NCBI GenBank assembly: GCA_003452395.1
Contig: DMOI01000045.1
Location: 3,727-67,726 of the forward strand
Reading direction: 5' to 3'
From: Clostridiales bacterium
GTDB taxonomy: Bacteria > Bacillota > Clostridia > Lachnospirales > UBA12420
DNA length: 64,000 bases
Position numbers and translations under genes: made by a program. The notes under the pieces are model-generated. The model made no database searches and was not told the DNA's origin. It worked only from the letters and a program-made list of their open reading frames with translations. Of the stretch, positions 4,273 to 60,513 are shown piece by piece (position 1 is the first letter of the stretch; the number at the start of each line of letters is the position of its first letter).

Positions 4273-4379
4273 CTGTCATTGCGACATCCTAATACTTAGT
4301 TTGTGTATTTTGCAAACTTAGTTATAGGGGTACTAGTATAGTGAGAGGTTTTTTCGACGAAGCAATCTCATCCTTTAAA
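4273..4379. repeat. family A palindromic element, left arm only, carrying a 58-bp nested insert
   Basis: CTGTCATTGCGA[insert]GAGAGGTTTTTTCGACGAAGCAATCTCATCC. Nearly identical to 59851-59947. Confidence 0.85.
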
Positions 4380-5256
4380 TTATCTCAACATCTCCAAATA
4401 CATCGCCCGATATATTTGTCCTCATATTTTCAATCTCAAATTTCATTACTCCATATCCTACCCCAAATGGTCCTTCATATGACAAAAGCTTACCTTTTAT
4501 ATCATTTCCATTTATAGCACCTAATATTATATAGCAAGATTTCAAACCATATTGGGAAACATTTTGAATAATAGAACTGTCTAAATTAAAAATCTCTACT
4601 TCGTTCCCTTCTTCTAAAAGACTAATAAGCTTCTTGTCAAATTTTTCCCCATCTTCATGATAATTATATTGTCCCTCATCACTTAAACAATGTGAAAAGT
4701 CTCCACTCGCAATCAAGACTACATTACTTGGTGAATCATTTATTGCCTTCCTTATAATCATACCAAACTTATATAAATCAAGCTTTGATAAAAGTCCATA
4801 AGTTATGTTTACCACTTTATAATCTTTATATTTTTTATTTATAAAATACAGTGGAACCATACTTCCGTAATCAAGTTCAACACCTACTCCATATACTTTA
4901 GCAGAATTCTTGCCTAATTTTATTGTTGATATTTTATTTTGTATTGCATATTCTGCAACCTTCTCAGTTAAAACTTTATCAATCTTACATTCTATTCCTA
5001 TTTGCTCATTACCAAACTCATCAAAGTTTCCATAAAGAACATCATCAATTGATATCGCTATCGTATCTCCAGAAAGAGATGCATGCGGTGTTACTATTAT
5101 TATAGTATCAGGTACTTTATGTGCTACATCTGACGCAACTTCATAACAAGCATTAAAAGTATTCTTTACATTTTTTATTTGTTCCTCACCTATTTCAGGT
5201 AATAAAATAGGTGCTTGAGGCATTAAATAACAACCCTTAAGTTCTCCCATAAACAC
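4375..5256 (-). CDS. class III extradiol dioxygenase subunit B-like (LigB/Memo superfamily) protein
   Basis: 293 aa, family-level resemblance only (VTPHASLSGD and GPFGVGYGV segments). Start uncertain: GTG at 5256 or ATG at 5223. Confidence 0.45.
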   Translation of the reverse strand: MFMGELKGCYLMPQAPILLPEIGEEQIKNVKNTFNACYEVASDVAHKVPDTIIIVTPHASLSGDTIAISIDDVLYGNFDEFGNEQIGIECKIDKVLTEKVAEYAIQNKISTIKLGKNSAKVYGVGVELDYGSMVPLYFINKKYKDYKVVNITYGLLSKLDLYKFGMIIRKAINDSPSNVVLIASGDFSHCLSDEGQYNYHEDGEKFDKKLISLLEEGNEVEIFNLDSSIIQNVSQYGLKSCYIILGAINGNDIKGKLLSYEGPFGVGYGVMKFEIENMRTNISGDVFGDVEII

Positions 5257-7780: not shown

Positions 7781-8137
7781 ATGACGAATACAAATACAGG
7801 TACAGGTGTAGGTACAAATGCCAATGCAAATACAGCAGCAGCTGCTAGTGCAGGTTCTAGAACTACTAGCTCAGATAAAATGGGTGAAAAAGAATATGTA
7901 ACAGATTTACTAAATTCAGAAAAGTTACTATGTAGTACTTATAATACTGCTATTATTGAGGCAGCTACTCCTCAAATAAGAGAAGATTTTAAATCAGTAT
8001 TAATGGATCAATTTGATGTTCAAAATACAATATTTATGGCTATGAATGAAAAAGGCTGGTATCCAGTTGATCCAGCACAACAAAACAAAATACAACAAGC
8101 AAAAGACCAGTTTCCATCTTCAGTATTAAACGCATAA
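7781..8137 (+). CDS. spore coat protein F (CotF)-like
   Basis: Low-complexity N-terminus, then EKEYVTDLLNSEKLLCSTYNTAIIEAATPQIREDF, which is typical of the Coat_F domain. Confidence 0.7.
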   Translation: MTNTNTGTGVGTNANANTAAAASAGSRTTSSDKMGEKEYVTDLLNSEKLLCSTYNTAIIEAATPQIREDFKSVLMDQFDVQNTIFMAMNEKGWYPVDPAQQNKIQQAKDQFPSSVLNA

Positions 8138-31940: not shown

Positions 31941-31973
31941 GTTTAACTAAGCTTTGAAAATACCAAAGCTAAG
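31941..31973 (-). repeat. conserved 3'-flank hairpin motif, copy 1
   Basis: On the minus strand CTTAGCTTTGGTATTTTCAAAGCTTAGTTAAAC. About 27 of 33 nt are shared with copy 2. Confidence 0.7.
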
Positions 31974-32037: not shown

Positions 32038-33378
32038 TTATTCCCACGTTATCGTATATGCATCCCCCGCACTAGCTCCGCTCGCTCCATCTAGTGTCAT
32101 ACCCGACGGACTTAAAAACAAAGCGGGCCGAACTCCGTTGTTACCGATATAGACGTAGTTGCAGTTCACCTCGCCACTCGCGAACACGTAGCGGACGTAG
32201 TACGAATTAAGCGCATAAGAGTCCCTTAGCCAGTAATACCCATACGCCCCTGTATTTAATCCTACATCTGTATAGCCTCCTGCTGTACTTTGCGTTACTG
32301 CTTCACTCGTTGGATATGCTTTTGTCCATGCTACTCCATCCCCTAGTGCCCCATTACTATATACATAGTCATTTAATTCCTTTATTCCTAGTAAAAATAC
32401 ACTTTCTGTCGTGTCTTTATAGTTTGCACTTACATAGTTTTCTACTGCTGCACTTGCATTTGTTGCTGTATATGTATGACTTGCTGTTCCTCCTGTTTTT
32501 GCGGCTGTTGCTGCATCTGTATTTGCTAGTATTGTTTTATGGGTTACTGGCATTATTTTACTTCTTTCTACTCCGTTAAAGTTTCCATCTGCCAAAAATC
32601 CTTTTTCTGCATCATATGGGTTGAAGCTACTATATACTCTTGCTGCGGTTGGCGAAAAGTATCCTAGCCAATCTACTAATCCAGCTCCTGCACTACTGTT
32701 TAGCCATGCTTTTAGGTTGCTTTTATCCCAGTAGTTACTTCCGTATGTTCCTCTATCTGCATCTCCCCCTGCTCCTGTTATCAGGTTTTCTCCTGTTGCG
32801 TCAAATGGTTTTATGCTTATTATTTTATCACTAAATAGCATGAGGTCTCCCTCGTGTAGTCCACTTCCTGGATTCGCTGCTAGGTATGCTGCGTCTACTT
32901 TGTTTATTACTCTCCATACGATTGGTTGACTTAGATATGTCCCGAATTTTAGGTAGTTTCCTACTGGCACATCTGCTACTACTGGTGGCTCTGGTTCTCC
33001 TCCACTTGCTACTCCTGTTACTTCTACTAGTGGCTGATTTACTGTTGCTATTCCTGTTACTGACGAGACAACTACTTTATACTCTTTTTCTGGATCTGTT
33101 GGATATATCGGATTTACGGGTAGCTCTTTTATATATCCTCCCGCTATCATTTCTGGTATACAGTCTGTATCATCTACTATACTATCTTGTGCTAATAGGT
33201 AGCTCTGTGCCTGTTGTTGTAGCATTCTCACATTTGCATTGTGTGCTATCTGCTTTGCTGTTTCGCTCTTATTCATGAATATTGGTATTGCTATTGTTGC
33301 TAGTGCTGCTAGTATTACCAGTACTGCTAATAATTCTAATAAAGTGAACCCTTTTTTGTTTTTTCTTTCAACTTTCAA
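32038..33378 (-). CDS. type IV prepilin-like N-terminus fused to a DUF1566/DUF6273-like (lectin-fold-like) domain
   Basis: KKG|FTLLELLAVLVILAALATIAIPIF class III signal motif. C-terminal YYWLRDS...GVRPALF pattern. GC clearly above its neighbours. TTG start lies inside a heptamer repeat. Confidence 0.75.
   Translation of the reverse strand: MKVERKNKKGFTLLELLAVLVILAALATIAIPIFMNKSETAKQIAHNANVRMLQQQAQSYLLAQDSIVDDTDCIPEMIAGGYIKELPVNPIYPTDPEKEYKVVVSSVTGIATVNQPLVEVTGVASGGEPEPPVVADVPVGNYLKFGTYLSQPIVWRVINKVDAAYLAANPGSGLHEGDLMLFSDKIISIKPFDATGENLITGAGGDADRGTYGSNYWDKSNLKAWLNSSAGAGLVDWLGYFSPTAARVYSSFNPYDAEKGFLADGNFNGVERSKIMPVTHKTILANTDAATAAKTGGTASHTYTATNASAAVENYVSANYKDTTESVFLLGIKELNDYVYSNGALGDGVAWTKAYPTSEAVTQSTAGGYTDVGLNTGAYGYYWLRDSYALNSYYVRYVFASGEVNCNYVYIGNNGVRPALFLSPSGMTLDGASGASAGDAYTITWE
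32119..32232 (-). other. candidate DGR-type variable-region-like segment (adenine-poor NNY codons)
   Basis: 38 codons from TGG CTA AGG to GCT TTG. By hand count 23 of 114 nt are A and only 2 codons end in A. AAC/TAC/TAT/TGC/ATC codons are interleaved with adenine-free GTC CGC, GTG TTC GCG and GTT CGG CCC GCT TTG. Confidence 0.4.
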
Positions 33379-52748: not shown

Positions 52749-53474
52749 CTATTTAAGTCTCACTCTCGCTTTATCATATACCACCATTTCCCTATCTTTC
52801 ATTTCTAGCATTTTTTCTTTTGCAATAAAGCCTTTTACTTTAGTCATCGGACCTATCCATGTATATTTTCCTATAAATGTCCCTGGTAAGGTAGTGCAGT
52901 TTGCGCCTATTCTAGAATGATCCCCCAAAACACATCCAAAAAAATCCAGTCCTAAATCGAAAAGTTCATCAGCATTTTTTACTGTAATATTTCTTTGATC
53001 AAATCTTCTATTAGCAAGTATCGAGCCCGAACCCACCCTGGCACTATCACCTATTATTGAGTCTCCTACAAAGGTAAAACTCTGCACTTTAGCATTATCC
53101 ATTATTATACTATGTTTCACTTGTGCACAATGTCCTATTGTACAATTATCTCCTATTATTGTGTATGGTCTTATAAAGGCACCCGGCATTATTGTGCAAT
53201 TTTCTCCAATTATTGAAGGTCCCTCAATTACTACATTTGGATATATTACTGTACTTTCTTCTATCATACATTTTCCAGTAATCACAACATTTTGTCTGTT
53301 TTTCATTTCTTTAAAGTCTTCGCTAAAAAAATTTATATTAATAGTATCTTCAACATACTCTTGTAATTTTTTCATTACCTCCCATACATGGGTCATATCA
53401 TTAAATAAGCATCCATGTTTATAATCTTCTAGACTTTCAAAATAATAGTTAAAATTAGAACCTTCATTTTTCAT
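52749..53474 (-). CDS. left-handed beta-helix acetyltransferase resembling the GlmU C-terminal domain
   Basis: Hexapeptide repeats. PGAFIRPYTIIGDNCTIGHCAQVKHSII...FVGDSIIGDSARVGSGSILAN aligns by eye to GlmU GPFAHIRP...IGNFVEIKK...YVGDAEVG...GCGSITVN. Confidence 0.65.
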   Translation of the reverse strand: MKNEGSNFNYYFESLEDYKHGCLFNDMTHVWEVMKKLQEYVEDTININFFSEDFKEMKNRQNVVITGKCMIEESTVIYPNVVIEGPSIIGENCTIMPGAFIRPYTIIGDNCTIGHCAQVKHSIIMDNAKVQSFTFVGDSIIGDSARVGSGSILANRRFDQRNITVKNADELFDLGLDFFGCVLGDHSRIGANCTTLPGTFIGKYTWIGPMTKVKGFIAKEKMLEMKDREMVVYDKARVRLK

Positions 53475-53496: not shown

Positions 53497-54888
53497 CTAT
53501 TTATTAATGGTATATGGATTATCTATTGTACCTTCTCCCCCAGTTATATATACAGACTCATCAATATTTATAGCTGGTCTTGCGGGAAAGTTAGTAAATG
53601 CATCTGCTTGACTTATTATTCCACTTAAATAATAAACATAGTAAATTTTTGTAGTAGAATCATTTGGTTGTGTAATTAACCACCAGTCTGCATTTATATC
53701 AGTAGTGGTAATTAGTTCACCCAATCTAAGTAATCCAACATTTGCCGAGATAGATTCAACCTTATTTTGCTCATATTTAACTTGCTCTATCGACTTTTCT
53801 ACTTTTTTATCGGGATTATTACCGACTTTGTCATATTGTGATGATTTTTTTGGATCTTTTGCAGGAGCCATATATCCAATATCTCTTATATACCAATCTG
53901 ATAATACAATCCAGTGTTTATTTTCTAGATTTTCATAAAATACTGTATTTAGAAAATTAGCTATATTATATTTATCTTTCGGATTATACGAAGGTATATT
54001 TCTTGTATCAAATCCTTGAAACCAGATAGCACTATTGCATACAATTTTTGTAGTAAGATTAGTATTTACATCAACAATTCTCCACGAAAACCCTGAATAT
54101 GTAATGTACTCCCCTGAGTGTCTCGTATTGAGTTTTTCCCCAGTTTTTGCAATAGACTCTTGTTTTAACTTATAAGGCGAAGCTTTAGTTCCTTCTCCCG
54201 ATTTTAAAGAAATAGTATTAGAAATTTTTATTACAGGAGTTACCCCATATTTACTATCAATTGGTGCTACATTAAGTTTCCCATCGTTTGATATACAATA
54301 TGCTTGATTAAGAGCATACGAAGGAGCAGACATTGTCCAATTGTATTTCGATATATTTAATATGCCTTTATACTTTATATACTCATCTTTAGTAAGCATT
54401 CCTATGTTATCCGTCACCGAATTATTTGTACCGTCCTCATTTTCCCTCCAAATAAATGTTTGGGGAATCAAAAGTGCTTTATTGTTTAATGTTTTATAGT
54501 AGGTTTGGTTTAACCAAACTCTTAAATAACTCAGATCATACTCATTATTATCTTCATAGTTATAATTTAGTATGGCAATAGGGTCTGCTGAAATAAGTAC
54601 AATACCATCATCTGCTTTATTTAAAATTATCCAATTATTTCCACTAAACCAGATGTAAGAACCCACTTCTTTGTCTTTTATATATATACTATTTTTATTT
54701 TCAACTTCAACTTGGTTTTGCGTTGTTCCTGTTTGATTTGTCTTATTTCCTTCAATTTCATCTACATTTTCAATATTTGTTGCAGGATTTTTCATAAAAT
54801 TTAGAACTAGATAACTTATTGCAATTAATACAATAACTAAAATACAACCCAAAACAATCAATTTTTTAGATTTATCACTTGTCTTCAT
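53497..54888 (-). CDS. membrane-anchored protein with two DUF6273/DUF1566-like domains
   Basis: N-terminal signal anchor. Two modules each have a W-rich beta pattern. The second ends DWWLITQPN...FPARPAINI and GGEGTIDNPYTI. Normal AT-rich codon usage. Confidence 0.65.
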   Translation of the reverse strand: MKTSDKSKKLIVLGCILVIVLIAISYLVLNFMKNPATNIENVDEIEGNKTNQTGTTQNQVEVENKNSIYIKDKEVGSYIWFSGNNWIILNKADDGIVLISADPIAILNYNYEDNNEYDLSYLRVWLNQTYYKTLNNKALLIPQTFIWRENEDGTNNSVTDNIGMLTKDEYIKYKGILNISKYNWTMSAPSYALNQAYCISNDGKLNVAPIDSKYGVTPVIKISNTISLKSGEGTKASPYKLKQESIAKTGEKLNTRHSGEYITYSGFSWRIVDVNTNLTTKIVCNSAIWFQGFDTRNIPSYNPKDKYNIANFLNTVFYENLENKHWIVLSDWYIRDIGYMAPAKDPKKSSQYDKVGNNPDKKVEKSIEQVKYEQNKVESISANVGLLRLGELITTTDINADWWLITQPNDSTTKIYYVYYLSGIISQADAFTNFPARPAINIDESVYITGGEGTIDNPYTINK

Positions 54889-56628: not shown

Positions 56629-57000
56629 TTAATTATTTTTTGTGTTAACTCCTATTATTCCACCTAAAACTCCACCTATCAACGCTGTGGAAAGTAGCTT
56701 AAAAGAATTAGGAGAAAATCCATACTCATTAGTAATAGCAAACGTTATTATAGCTAAAAAAACAAAATATATCCCCCCTACAAGAAGCCCAGAAAGCCAT
56801 CCATTCATACTCAGATTTCTTGCAGCATAAAATCCCCCTATAAACAATGCTACAATAGTTATAGCTGCAATACCAATACCTATACTATTATCGTCAATAG
56901 AAGCGTAGGTTAGTAAAAATGAAAAAAATAACAATAATATAAGCGTTACAATATAAGATAGTAAAACTCCTTTAAATAACTGCATAATAAAATTTTTCAT
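56629..57000 (-). CDS. small four-TM membrane protein (TIGR04086-like)
   Basis: 123 aa with four hydrophobic helices and a GGFYAARN...NGWLSGLLVG pattern. Confidence 0.6.
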   Translation of the reverse strand: MKNFIMQLFKGVLLSYIVTLILLLFFSFLLTYASIDDNSIGIGIAAITIVALFIGGFYAARNLSMNGWLSGLLVGGIYFVFLAIITFAITNEYGFSPNSFKLLSTALIGGVLGGIIGVNTKNN

Positions 57001-57072
57001 AACTCACCTCTTAATTTGTTTAGTTATTAAAATTATATTACACATTATTAAAAATATGAAAAAATATTTAGA

Positions 57073-57801
57073 TTACTTATTTCTTTTGTCCAATATTTCT
57101 CTAGCTATAACTAAATCTTCTTGTGTATTAACACCTAGTATCTCAGTATAATCATTAACAATATAACTCCCTACCCTATATCCTTCGTTTATGATAATTC
57201 TTATAGTATCAGGCAGATAGTACTCATTACTCTTATTATTGTTTTGTATTTTCTTTAACGCTTCTTTTAAATATTTTCCTTTAAAGCAATATATGCCGGA
57301 ATTTATTTCCTTTATATTTATTTGATCATTATTTGCATCTTTTTTTTCTACTATACTTATAATATTTTTTTCATTATCTCTAATTATCCTACCATAAGCC
57401 ATTGGATTATCAAGTATAGTAGTAATAATTGTGGCAGCGTCATTACTTTTAATATGCATATCCATAATATTATTTAGAGTTTTTGATGTTATAAGTGGAG
57501 AGTCTCCACACAGTACTATAATGTCGTCTATATCATCTATGTATTCTTCCACTTGCATAACTGCATGTCCAGTTCCTAACTGATCTTTTTGTTCTACAAA
57601 AATCACATCATTCTTAACTGCTTCTATTACATTATTTGCGTTACTAGAGATAACTACAAATACTCTATCAAAATTGCACATTTTAACAACATCTAACACG
57701 TGCTGAATTAACGTTTTATTATTTATCTCATGTAAGACCTTCGGTATCATAGAATTCATCCTACTACCTTTCCCCGCTGCAAGTACTATAGCTTTCAACA
57801 T
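57073..57801 (-). CDS. GlmU N-terminal (uridyltransferase) domain protein lacking the acetyltransferase domain
   Basis: LAAGKGSRM, LGTGHAV, CGDSPL, YGRII, EYYLPD and LGVN all align to the GlmU pyrophosphorylase domain. The ORF ends at the linker after 242 aa. Confidence 0.8.
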   Translation of the reverse strand: MLKAIVLAAGKGSRMNSMIPKVLHEINNKTLIQHVLDVVKMCNFDRVFVVISSNANNVIEAVKNDVIFVEQKDQLGTGHAVMQVEEYIDDIDDIIVLCGDSPLITSKTLNNIMDMHIKSNDAATIITTILDNPMAYGRIIRDNEKNIISIVEKKDANNDQINIKEINSGIYCFKGKYLKEALKKIQNNNKSNEYYLPDTIRIIINEGYRVGSYIVNDYTEILGVNTQEDLVIAREILDKRNK

Positions 57802-57990
57802 GAAATTTCCCCCATTTTATTAATTATTATATTATATGTTTCCTATCTCGACGAGTCTTCTTGAGAATCTATTTTGTTTTTTGCTACTTCCTTGTGCACC
57901 TCCATCGTCCCTTATATTTGGTGCGCCGCTTATGCTATTGCCCTTCCCAAATCTATACGTCGCAAGTTAGCAGTTGCTCGCAAGGAGAAA

Positions 57991-58025
57991 GTTCAATCTA
58001 CAACTTTGAAACTACCAAAGCTTAG
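57991..58025 (-). repeat. conserved 3'-flank hairpin motif, copy 2
   Basis: On the minus strand CTAAGCTTTGGTAGTTTCAAAGTTGTAGATTGAAC, starting 8 nt after the stop codon. Confidence 0.7.
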
Positions 58026-58033
58026 ACTCACTT

Positions 58034-59611
58034 TTAGTCAAGCCCACACAGAACGGGACGGAAAGAAACATTACTATCAGCAGTGCCATTGATGTAGTGA
58101 CCCGCGAACGCCCCCGCACTAGTACCATTAGAGTAGTTACCACCGCGAAGGAAAAACGGATTCGCGCTATATGGAAAATATTGGTAATCTCCGTATCCTT
58201 TAAAGGTATTTGTGTTTGTGCTATTATCGCCACATTTCATTATTTCATGTAATGCTAGTCCTGTCGTATTTCCTTCTGTTTGAGTATAGTTTTCTTGATA
58301 TGTTGGTGTTCCATCTTCTGTTACTGCTAATACATCTGCTACACCGCTATTACTTCCATAGGCTGTTACTAGGCTTCCACCATTTGTAGTTAGGATTCCA
58401 TTTCCGTTTGCCACGTAGCTTGCTATGTACTCCCAAGCACCACCACTCATGTCATAGATTCCGTACACGTTTCCGGTTGTGCTTGCTTTTTGGCATTGTG
58501 CATTTTTATAGTCACTGATTGTTCCTACATCTGTTCCTGCACTTGCAGAGCTTCCTGCGCTTCCTGTGACGTATCCACTGTCATTGTTTATCCATATCTC
58601 TACGCCATCTCTTACTGCTTCTGAAAGATATGTTACCGCTCCCCAGTCTCTATTTCTCATCATCAGGGTGTCTACTTCACTGCTGTTAAGTCCATAGCTG
58701 CCTGTTTTCATTGCAATACATTTGTTATATATATTATTTACTGTTATACTTCTCCAGCTTGCTACGCTTGGTACTACTTTTATGTTTGTACTTGCATTTT
58801 GACTTGCTTCAAATTTGGCTACCCAGATGCCCGTGAGCTGTGTTGCTCCATATGTAAAGGCTGGGTGCACAGTAAATCCTGCTGTTGATGTGGTACTCGT
58901 TCCTTCTAGATATTCTATTTCTATTTTATCGTCTGCTGCTGAATCTGTATTGTCTCCTGTTATCTTGTATGCATATCGTGGTATCCATACAAACATACTA
59001 TTATCTACATCTCCTAGTTGTACATTTGCCCATTTTTCACTTGTCGCATAACTTCCATTTTCTACGTCTCCTGCGTAGTTATACCATGCTACATCATCTG
59101 CTGTTGTTGTGACTACATTGTTGCTTCCATCCCATTTGATTGGTGTCATTCCTGTTAGTAGCTTCGGCTTGTTTACTCCCATCGCTACATTATATTCTGG
59201 GTCTGATGCTGGTGGCGTACCACCGCCTTGAGCGGTGTTGGTTACCTCTACTAGCCCTGGGCTTACTGTTACCTTACCGTCTGCTGCTACTGCTACGGTA
59301 AATGCTCCCGAACCATCCCCGCTTGCTATCGGATTTGTTGGTCTTTCCCTTAGATACCCTGTTGTTACCATAGTGTCTATGATATCTGCCTGTACTCCTG
59401 TATCTCCCTGCTCCCACAGGTATGCCTGTGCTTGCTTTTGCAAGAGTGCTACTGTTTCGTTATGGGCTATTTCTCTTGCTCTACCCCCGTTATTCGTAAA
59501 TATAGGTATCGCAATCGTCGCTAGTGCTGCAAGTATTACAAGCACTGCTAAAAGTTCAAGTAATGTAAACCCTTTTTTTGTATTTCTTTTCGTATCGTGC
59601 ATGTCTTTCAT
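58034..59611 (-). CDS. type IV prepilin-like N-terminus fused to an FGE-sulfatase/C-type-lectin-fold-like domain
   Basis: KKG|FTLLELLAVLVILAALATIAIPIF. C-terminal ...GIYDMSGGAWEY...RGGNYSNG...VSFRPV resembles the FGE-sulfatase fold. GGAGGT RBS. GC above its neighbours. Confidence 0.75.
   Translation of the reverse strand: MKDMHDTKRNTKKGFTLLELLAVLVILAALATIAIPIFTNNGGRAREIAHNETVALLQKQAQAYLWEQGDTGVQADIIDTMVTTGYLRERPTNPIASGDGSGAFTVAVAADGKVTVSPGLVEVTNTAQGGGTPPASDPEYNVAMGVNKPKLLTGMTPIKWDGSNNVVTTTADDVAWYNYAGDVENGSYATSEKWANVQLGDVDNSMFVWIPRYAYKITGDNTDSAADDKIEIEYLEGTSTTSTAGFTVHPAFTYGATQLTGIWVAKFEASQNASTNIKVVPSVASWRSITVNNIYNKCIAMKTGSYGLNSSEVDTLMMRNRDWGAVTYLSEAVRDGVEIWINNDSGYVTGSAGSSASAGTDVGTISDYKNAQCQKASTTGNVYGIYDMSGGAWEYIASYVANGNGILTTNGGSLVTAYGSNSGVADVLAVTEDGTPTYQENYTQTEGNTTGLALHEIMKCGDNSTNTNTFKGYGDYQYFPYSANPFFLRGGNYSNGTSAGAFAGHYINGTADSNVSFRPVLCGLD
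58037..58170 (-). other. candidate DGR-type variable-region-like segment (adenine-poor NNY codons)
   Basis: The last 38 codons have no A at third positions. By hand count 18 of 114 nt are A. Adenine-free scaffold codons (GCG GGG GCG TTC GCG; TTC CGT CCC GTT CTG TGT GGG CTT) are interleaved with AAC/TAC/AAT/CAC/ATC/AGT codons. Confidence 0.45.
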
Positions 59612-59727
59612 AACTAACCTCCATTATATACATCATTTGTATTGGTTATTTAGTGCTAGGATATTTTTTGGTGTTGTATATGTATGAGAGTGCTTTAAGA
59701 AAATTGCCACAAATATGCGGTTTTACG

Positions 59728-59774
59728 CCTATACCTATACCTATACCTATACCTATACCTATACCTATACCTAT
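59728..59774. repeat. hexanucleotide microsatellite (CCTATA)7 plus a partial unit
   Basis: Read directly and confirmed by the IPIPIP / GIGIGI translations in the ORF track. Lies 117-163 nt upstream of the 59611 start codon. Confidence 0.95.
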
Positions 59775-59801
59775 TTTAACAATTTTCTTTCTTTTTTGCA
59801 A
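59773..59801 (-). promoter_or_regulatory. candidate sigma-A promoter abutting the microsatellite
   Basis: On the minus strand: TTGCAA (59801-59796), 17-nt spacer, TAAAAT (59778-59773). The repeat starts right after the -10. Confidence 0.4.
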
Positions 59802-59850
59802 TAGATTTCGAAAAGAAAATTTTCGCAACAAGAAAAGCGCTCCGCGCGTG

Positions 59851-60024
59851 TGTCATTGCGACATCCTAATACTTAGTTTGTGTATTTTGCAAACTTAGTT
59901 ATAGGGGTACTAGTATAGTGAGAGGTTCTTTCGACGAAGCAATCCCTTGCTCCTTACGAAATACTAAAGTGAACTATTAATTTGTTCCATAAAACACGGG
60001 ATTGCTTCGTTCCTCGCAATGACA
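59851..60024. repeat. family A palindromic element with the same 58-bp nested insert in its left arm
   Basis: Left arm plus insert at 59851-59947, right arm GGGATTGCTTCGTTCCTCGCAATGACA at 59998-60024. Confidence 0.85.
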
Positions 60025-60049
60025 AAATCGGAGGAGTTTCCTAGTAAAC

Positions 60050-60082
60050 AAAAAAACTCTCTAGCAAATATAGAGAGTTTTT
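60050..60082 (-). terminator. rho-independent terminator after spoVG (bidirectional shape)
   Basis: AACTCTCTA-N7-TAGAGAGTT flanked by an A-run and a T-run. Confidence 0.65.
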
Positions 60083-60110
60083 AGTGATATCTGACACGCC
60101 GATATCTATG

Positions 60111-60398
60111 TTAAAAGTTTGTTGTTGCAGTATCCGACATTTGAACTGCTGCTTTTTGATATTCTGAAATTATTGCTTCTTGCATTTTATCTCTTGCATC
60201 AGAGTTTATTGGATGTGCAATGTCTTTAAACTCTTCGTTAACTGTTTTTCTGCTAGGCATAGCTATAAACATGCCCTTTTCCCCTTCTATAACTTTGATA
60301 TCGTGAACTACAAATTCATTATCAAAAGTCACTGATACAACCGCTTTCATTTTTGATTCGTTAGTAATTTTTCTAATTCTTACATCTGTAATTTTCAT
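60111..60398 (-). CDS. spoVG: septation/sporulation regulator SpoVG
   Basis: [11 protein letters not shown]...[20 protein letters not shown] is canonical SpoVG. Confidence 0.95.
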
Positions 60399-60513
60399 AC
60401 TTTTAGTCATCTCCTTTTGAATAAGTTATCTGTCGTGTGTGACATATTTTTATATAAGTTCATATTAACATATTTGTTTTAAAAAATCAATATATTTTTA
60501 ACATTTTTTTATT

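Follow-up and report, generated by a model that had tools for sequence, protein, structure and literature searches.

A probable diversity-generating retroelement variable region in a prepilin-like gene of a Clostridiales bacterium, at a locus with remnants of the accessory cassette

The DNA analysed here is a 64,000-nt stretch of contig DMOI01000045.1 from a Clostridiales bacterium. This stretch is referred to as the window; coordinates are window positions, and it is the only part of the genome that was searched directly. Between spoVG and glmU it contains a gene of 525 codons, whose product is predicted to join a type IV prepilin N-terminus to a C-terminal domain resembling FGE-sulfatases and C-type lectins (CLec). 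The 3' end of this gene is very probably a genuine variable region (VR) of a diversity-generating retroelement (DGR), from which the local cassette of template repeat (TR), reverse transcriptase (RT) and Avd has been deleted. The protein has more than 5,000 detectable homologues. Its cluster at 90% identity contains four members with two C-terminal haplotypes, and exact-sequence look-ups of the window protein, P0001, P0121 and P0002 returned no record.

The end of the gene is strikingly poor in adenine. Only 18 A were counted in the 114 nt of the last 38 sense codons (9 at the first codon position, 9 at the second and 0 at the third), and the GC content of these codons is 52.6%. Third-position A is absent from all 45 codons from 481 to 525 (58037-58171), compared with 235 of 480 (49%) in codons 1-480, which gives a probability of about 7e-14 for 0 of 45. 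The AT skew of the plus strand moves from about -0.35 in the gene body to about +0.25 in the tail segment, with the sign change exactly there. The whole gene and about 170 nt downstream (57865-59620) form an island of 40-50% GC in a genome of about 30% GC, thus the tail segment stands out mainly by its loss of adenine and not by its GC content. The same difference was found in four homologous loci (L022, L027, L029 and L030), where the frequency of third-position A is 0.51-0.59 in the gene body and 0.00-0.09 in the tail. The initial annotation of this DNA had quoted the last 38 codons and their adenine counts exactly, and its view that the signature is not gene-wide holds both here and in relatives. 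It was right that a tract free of third-position A exists but gave it too short a length; likewise, the GC contrast with the genome that it described is real, though not confined to the tail.

The adenine-free VR core, a 19-mer (TGCGGGGGCGTTCGCGGGT), was searched in the species representatives of GTDB and found at 19 loci. Seventeen of them were chance matches in high-GC genomes and were discarded, as was L012, which has only the core (25 nt) in common with the L020 cassette. The only relevant locus was L020 in Clostridiales bacterium GWD2_32_19, where the core occurs twice, 1.5 kb apart. This genome comes from the same aquifer, and L020 is the fullest related cassette there, with a target gene, an RT and a TR (Table 1). 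The L020 TR has 19 diversifiable codons, corresponding to about 3e18 possible peptides. Compared with the L020 VR, it has mismatches at 22 of its 32 adenines and at 0 of the 96 non-A positions (p=2e-17). The L020 RT carries a stop codon and its avd is a remnant, yet the TR/VR differences are purely adenine-specific, so this cassette was either recently inactivated or is read through. At L027, the target gene P0003 (a 49%-identical homologue) is accompanied by an intact TR (7877-8006), Avd and RT in that order, with 19 adenine mismatches and 1 non-adenine mismatch between TR and VR. The flanks of L020 and L027 are cellular, and no match to the VR core was found in the IMG/VR viral collection.

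Table 1. Predicted features of the window and of related loci (positions without a locus name are window positions)
Feature	Position	Strand	Description
Probable DGR variable-protein gene	58034-59611	minus	525-aa/525-codon ORF; prepilin-type N-terminus, pilin-like head, C-terminal FGE-sulfatase/C-type-lectin-like domain ending in the VR; predicted from ORF, Pfam, homologues, PDB profile matches and Foldseek
Predicted class III (prepilin) signal and N-terminal hydrophobic helix	59507-59587	minus	KKG/FTLLELLAVLVILAALATIAIPIF (KKG/FTLLE): G at -1, F at +1, E at +5
Probable VR	58041-58168	minus	128 nt, gapless alignment to L020 TR; diversified part 58067-58165
VR 3' end	58041-58066	minus	26 nt, TCTTTCCGTCCCGTTCTGTGTGGGCT; adenine-free, GC-rich; common to TR up to GGGCT, where VR/TR homology stops in L020
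Cassette remnant A (post-VR spacer)	57865-58033	minus	169 nt; blastn to L020 4681-4791 at 79%; homology to L001 stops abruptly at 57865
Cassette remnant B (RT leader)	57836-57864	minus	29 nt; homologous to 25-53 nt upstream of the L020 RT start codon (L020 4488-4516), 25/29 bases
Promoter-like site	59773-59801	minus	TTGCAA-17-TAAAAT (with TG), upstream of the gene; consensus match only; aligns among window, L020 and L027
Hexanucleotide repeat	59728-59774	minus	(CCTATA)x7.8 (on plus strand), perfect; begins right after the -10 hexamer; Tandem Repeats Finder
Second pilin-fused gene	32038-33378	minus	446 aa; N_methyl and DUF6273 (Pfam); candidate VR at about 32113-32256
23-nt motif	58002-58024 and 31950-31972	minus	TAAGCTTTGGTAGTTTCAAAGTT (= TAAGCTTTGGTAGTTTCAAAGYT); weak AT-rich inverted repeat; the copy at 58002-58024 is in a 58-nt block absent from L020
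L020 target gene P0004	L020 4792-6354		52%-identical homologue; VR 4799-4926
L020 spacer	L020 4463-4792		329 nt, with frameshifted avd remnant (pseudogene)
L020 RT	L020 3432-4463	minus	IGNYTSQ and YMDD; one in-frame TAG between REAGKN and GNDYYILKCD
L020 TR	L020 3262-3389		128 nt; reads STNPFFIRGGNYSNGTNAGAFAGNNNNGNANSNKSFRPVLCG
Conserved element directly 3' of TR	L020 3100-3261; L022 2225-2381; L027 8007-8130	minus (L020)	GTGAGAGGTTATTGTTCACGGAC...AAGGAACCTTATTCCTACC...AACATAAACAGCAAG; about 190 nt in L020
Downstream of VR in L027			Intact cassette: TR, Avd, RT
Downstream of VR in L020			All but a working avd and possibly a working RT
Downstream of VR in L001			Spacer, avd remnant, first ~45 RT codons (85% aa identity), then unrelated DNA (SNF2 helicase)
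Downstream of VR in L022 (paralogue P0124, same species as L001)			Spacer, avd remnant, 3' half of TR, post-TR element; 227-nt stretch 97% identical to L020
Downstream of VR in the window			169 nt spacer (57865-58033) and 29 nt (57836-57864)

When the segment of the window gene was aligned to the L020 TR, mismatches were found at 12 of the 32 TR adenines and at 4 of the 96 non-A positions (Fisher p=9e-6). The same 4 non-adenine differences are present in the VR of L001 (ENA k141_327878), a gene copy 96-99% identical to the window gene, indicating that the lost cognate TR itself differed from the L020 TR at these positions. That cognate TR would accordingly read as the L020 TR with G38C, C93T, C99T and G111T (AGCACGAATCCGTTTTTCATTCGCGGTGGTAACTACACTAATGGTACTAATGCGGGGGCGTTCGCGGGTAACAACAACAATGGCAATGCTAATAGTAATAAATCTTTCCGTCCCGTTCTGTGTGGGCT). 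The VRs of the window and L001 differ at 21 of the 128 TR-aligned nt, and 20 of these 21 differences fall on TR-adenine positions, although only 32 of the 128 positions are adenine. In addition, third-position-A usage shifts abruptly at the boundary of TR homology. These results support the proposal in the initial annotation that the segment is a DGR variable region, and the check it had suggested, whether variation between related copies is confined to template adenines, gave a positive answer. The adenine-free 3' end of the VR is placed where an IMH-like (initiation of mutagenic homing) element would be expected, and may act as one.

The differences between the window and L001 are unevenly distributed. 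None was found in 4,389 nt of upstream flank, whereas the gene body has 12 (in 1,437 nt), the VR 22 (in 138 nt) and the downstream spacer 5 (in 172 nt, 57865-58036, 97% identical). In the gene body (58175-59611), 10 of the 12 differences are at codon position 1 or 2; they are mostly non-synonymous and are not adenine-specific. The gene body of L002, another record of this locus, is a mosaic of window-type and L001-type alleles. This gene-body pattern suggests diversifying selection, gene conversion among pilin paralogues or strains collapsed in assembly.

No imperfect copy of the segment was detected in the 64 kb, either by blastn with word size 7 or by a scan in which mismatches were tolerated wherever the second copy has adenine (the best hit other than self had 32 non-A mismatches). 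A DGR-type RT was likewise not found in the window: tblastn with the L020 RT gave nothing below E=9, Pfam found none in 21 window ORFs, and none was present among the gene calls for 49.8-64 kb, which were taken on the L002 copy of this part. The best similarity to Avd in the window spacer had E=15. The reported lack of an RT and a TR in the window is therefore borne out.

The N-terminus of the protein has the G-1/F+1/E+5 arrangement that is canonical for class III signal peptides. Pfam N_methyl matches residues 9-35 with E=5.9e-7 (29.3 bits, cut-off 21.2), and a long N-terminal helix was predicted at residues 17-68 by AlphaFold2 (AF2). When a profile was built from 55 family members, its first ~110 positions matched solved structures of type IV pilins and GspG with E values from 1e-7 to 1e-3 (PilE1, PilA, MshA, GspG and geopilin). 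Further along, positions 228-378 of the profile match 5VF4 with E=1.3e-6, the only significant PDB match beyond pilins. This structure is TaqVP, the DGR variable protein of Thermus aquaticus (bioRxiv 10.1101/432187). TaqVP is also the sole significant match when the AF2 model was compared with the PDB by Foldseek (E=1e-5, TM-score 0.3). PF03781 (FGE-sulfatase) was found in 39 of the 55 family members at E<=0.01, and is weak in the window protein itself (E=0.015, below cut-off). Both domain assignments of the initial annotation, a pilin-type N-terminus and a C-terminal FGE-sulfatase/CLec fold, thus agree with the profile and structure matches. The latter fold is supported at the family level and weak for the VR-bearing tip. 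The best enzyme match was SUMF2 (1Y4J, E=0.67); the likeness is claimed at the level of fold only, and the protein is not classed as an enzyme. Display of the protein on a pilus is a prediction.

Downstream of the VR, the window retains two pieces of a DGR cassette, a post-VR spacer and an RT leader (remnants A and B in Table 1). The local alignment score of remnant B is 19, compared with a maximum of 15 in 300 shuffles (0/300 reached the score). The avd remnant is missing before it, RT, TR and post-TR element are missing after it, and the glmU start codon lies 34 nt beyond it. Since these two remnants were left in the spacer, avd, RT and TR appear to have been deleted here. L001 lacks the 29-nt piece yet keeps parts that are absent from the window, which argues that both forms decayed independently from an ancestor with a fuller cassette. 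In that ancestor, avd, RT, TR and the post-TR element would have lain directly downstream, between the target gene and glmU, and the accessory cassette would have been lost through at least two deletions that left the spacer and the RT leader. spoVG and glmU are neighbours in many Firmicutes (as in the B. subtilis spoVG-gcaD-prs-ctc-pth region), therefore the target gene, with its cassette, seems to have been inserted between them.

The conserved element 3' of the TR may be a structured, self-priming part of the DGR RNA. It stays directly after the TR despite the different gene orders, which are RT-TR in L020 and TR-avd-RT in L027.

A second pilin-fused gene is present in the window (Table 1). 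Its product has the same 25-residue prepilin N-terminus as the first one, and a single 30-codon stretch contains 1 third-position A, compared with ~17 elsewhere in the gene. Eight homologues (69-100% identity) vary almost only between WLRDSYA and GVRPALFL. The gene is likely to be a second DGR target. Neither a TR nor an RT was found for it in the window, and none adjoins the homologue in L028. A 23-nt motif has only two matches in the window, one downstream of each pilin-fused VR gene, while 0 were expected by chance. It is also found downstream of the VR in L001, L002, L022, L025 and L026, and is absent from L020, L027 and L028, which are from other species. The motif could be a target-recognition element or a small repeat. 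Its reading as a terminator was rejected, because it has neither a GC-rich stem nor a T-run.

More distant members of the family were found in other metagenomes at L029 (360-1871) and L030/L031 (5001-7502), with 38-45% identity. In L029 and L030 the frequency of third-position A is 0.51-0.59 in the body and 0.04-0.07 in a GC-rich 45-codon tail. No RT was found within 5-8 kb of P0029, P0077 and P0247, which indicates that adjacency of the RT is not a rule of the family. The signature in L029 and L030 without an adjacent RT suggests that service from a non-adjacent site, and remote or orphaned VRs, may be common in the family.

The evidence that the segment was written by a DGR has to be weighed against an origin outside DGRs, in which it would be a foreign codon-usage patch or a surface-protein hot spot of ordinary positive selection. 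The whole gene is indeed compositionally foreign (43% against ~30% GC), and its body polymorphisms are also mostly non-synonymous (10/12). However, these body polymorphisms are not adenine-specific, whereas the differences between VR copies fall on the adenines of a homologous TR; third-position A falls off sharply where homology to the TR sets in, and relatives carry full cassettes with TR and RT. A non-DGR origin is therefore scarcely credible. The missing cassette could also be an artefact, if the VR/TR and paralogue repeats had made the assembler skip avd-RT-TR or join two loci. The contigs of the sister form, L025 and P0121, break inside the 5' part of the gene, the pilin 5' end is common to several paralogues, and the mosaic of L002 could be read in the same way. 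Against this, the window junctions (57864/57865 and after 57836) do not lie at VR/TR repeat sequence, the order spoVG-target-glmU is also present in L002, glmU usually comes after spoVG in Firmicutes (as in B. subtilis), and three loci show three different truncation patterns. An assembly artefact is thus very unlikely.

Whether the VR is still being rewritten is a separate matter. Because the cassette was deleted from the locus, the window copy is probably no longer diversified, and the balance of evidence leans towards a frozen orphan. A competing explanation, plausible but somewhat doubtful, is that the VR is an active remote target, diversified in trans by an intact DGR (RT, TR and possibly Avd) elsewhere in the genome, and that the local cassette became redundant after duplication and decayed. 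Remote targets are documented elsewhere, for example in Treponema and lineage 4 DGRs (PMC5758913). The species holds several paralogous targets with decayed cassettes (L001 and L022), a second type of VR lies in the window, the 23-nt motif is common to the regions downstream of VR genes, the VR 3' end is intact, distant family members keep the signature without an adjacent RT, and copies with an identical 4.4-kb flank have different VRs. On the other side, searches with the VR core gave no matching TR in JGI metagenomes, among them Ga0209000, the source of the same-species contigs L025 and L026; beyond L020, none was found in the GTDB species representatives, and none in IMG/VR. No RT of this lineage from this species was found among 5.8 billion proteins, and among 2,682 RT homologues, identity to the L020 RT does not exceed 63%, apart from the fragment of L020 itself. 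The VR haplotypes are fixed across independent assemblies: five assemblies gave only two haplotypes, one in the window and L002, the other in L001, L025 and P0121. Even L020, the fullest related cassette from the same aquifer, carries an avd pseudogene and an RT interrupted by an in-frame TAG.

Several observations weigh against the reading of the segment as an orphaned DGR target on a pilin, or against parts of it. The cognate TR and RT of its own genome were never seen, and adenine specificity was scored on the TR of another species as a surrogate. No more than 64 kb of the genome can be seen, remote DGR targets are well documented (PMC5758913), and an intact cassette could be missed since VR/TR repeats often break metagenome assemblies. 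No RT or TR lies within 5 kb of the gene in L029 and L030/L031, one of which is on a 1.47-Mb contig. The gene and spacer diverge more than the flank between the window and L001 (0.84-2.9% against 0%), which, together with the mosaic of L002, points to recombination or to paralogues that were joined or collapsed by the assembler; for this reason, dating the last diversification by the identical 4.4-kb flank was rejected. The region downstream of the VR folds no better than shuffles (z=-0.13) and has no significantly stable hairpin, so a cruciform at this site is not claimed. The full-length AF2 model is poor (pLDDT 50). When the C-terminal 386 aa were modelled (residues 140-525, 105 sequences), the pTM rose to 0.71, but the pLDDT stayed at 25-45 in the final ~130 residues, among them the VR. 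Support for the fold thus comes from the sequence profile and from the more upstream portion of the domain. No pilus assembly genes (PilB/C/D or ComG/Gsp equivalents) were found among the scanned window ORFs.

Other features surround the gene. The hexanucleotide repeat next to the promoter-like site could provide slipped-strand control of expression. At the same site L020 has ~1.5 units, and L027 has a 7-nt unit repeated ~7 times. A 94-nt dispersed repeat (99% identical) was found at 4274-4367 and between spoVG and the target gene; the second copy corresponds to L001 9668-9761, or approximately window 59,850-59,945 by offset. It holds a palindromic 'cattgcgaggaacgaagcaatcc' type sequence, and a related sequence lies upstream of the L027 target gene. 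An Rfam scan of 57000-60500 at E<=1 gave no match. GlmU is apparently split into an NTP-transferase part and a hexapeptide-repeat part, encoded by separate ORFs on the minus strand (57073-57801 and 52749-53474) that are 3.6 kb apart. Between them lie DUF3792, PfkB, DUF6514 and a 463-aa DUF6273-like gene (53497-54888) without a VR signature.

If the segment is a DGR target as preferred here, its sequence would have been written by mutagenic retrohoming. The DGR RT would have copied a TR rich in AAY codons with misincorporation at template adenines, and the mutagenized cDNA would have replaced the VR. Scaffold codons without adenine would never have been changed, which would explain the adenine-free signature. 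The VR would encode ligand-facing residues of the FGE-sulfatase/C-type-lectin-like domain, and the protein, after processing by prepilin peptidase, may be exposed on a type IV filament, where it would serve as a variable adhesin.

In mechanism and scaffold this is a classical DGR of the kind known from Mtd (Bordetella phage BPP-1), TvpA (Treponema denticola) and TaqVP; it is an orphan, and its domain context has received little description. As in those systems, a CLec/FGE-sulfatase-like domain has the VR at its very C-terminal end, AAY codons abound in the template, TR/VR differences are adenine-specific and the scaffold codons are free of adenine; relatives also carry Avd and an RT with IGxxxSQ, like classical DGRs. 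In contrast to them, the window copy is without TR, RT and Avd, and its product begins with a type IV prepilin signal and helix, whereas the classical contexts are phage tail-fibre, lipoprotein or cytoplasmic. The protein shares no more than 16-17% sequence identity with TaqVP, and its model is of low quality across the VR. The Treponema DGR has seven non-adjacent targets (PMC5758913), which resemble the window gene in having no RT or TR nearby, but here the spacer and RT-leader remnants show a former adjacent cassette, and no serving TR was found.

Bacteroides DGRs diversify the adhesive tips of type V pili (bioRxiv 10.1101/2024.11.15.621889). In both cases DGR variability resides on a protein associated with a pilus (as predicted for the window protein), presumably for adhesion. 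The two differ in phylum (Clostridia here) and in pilin type, since a type IV prepilin signal for prepilin peptidase is found here and type V pilins are of the lipoprotein-type, strand-exchange class. With type IV pilins and pseudopilins (PilA/PilE, GspG, ComGC and large modular Gram-positive pilins) the protein shares a class III signal, a hydrophobic helix and a beta-sheet head. It differs from them by its 525 aa with a grafted 380-aa lectin-like module and by its location outside a pilus operon. DUF6273 is already known as a target domain of phage DGRs, in tentaclins (PMC10743442) and in Faecalibacterium prophages (PMC11792537). The second gene shares with those targets a DUF6273 domain with a VR-like hypervariable patch; unlike them, it is chromosomal, fused to a pilin N-terminus and without phage context. 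The only mention found of a DGR scaffold with a type IV prepilin N-terminus is a passing one in a single survey (PMC11661182). Pilins are not mentioned in the main texts of two large DGR surveys, and a search for literature pairing DGR with prepilin, pseudopilin or N-terminal methylation found none.

The adenine-free codon signature alone flagged a true DGR target in a sequence with no RT or template. This result favours the use of composition to discover remote or orphaned targets, which escape RT-anchored surveys; one such study states that its own approach is unable to detect remote targets (PMC8144416). The related loci also form a series of stepwise decay of one cassette lineage, from intact in L027, through the avd pseudogene and RT stop of L020, the RT stub of L001 and the half TR of L022, to the spacer left in the window. 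This series bears on how long the diversity written by a DGR outlives its writer.

Taken together, the analysis provides sequence-level evidence for a large family of proteins that join a DGR scaffold to a type IV prepilin N-terminus. A wider proposal, which we consider unlikely on present evidence, is that these Clostridiales from groundwater, perhaps together with many of the gut Clostridia that occur among the more than 5,000 homologues, have a multi-gene repertoire of DGR-writable folds (FGE-sulfatase/CLec-like and DUF6273) on one pilin stalk. One trans-acting DGR would serve the repertoire through the post-VR motif, the hexamer repeat would switch expression, and the window copy would be a live remote target. 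If this were true, these bacteria would possess an antibody-like, phase-variable adhesin repertoire at the pilus tip. If the members of the family are displayed on pili, they would be programmable adhesins of Gram-positive anaerobes.

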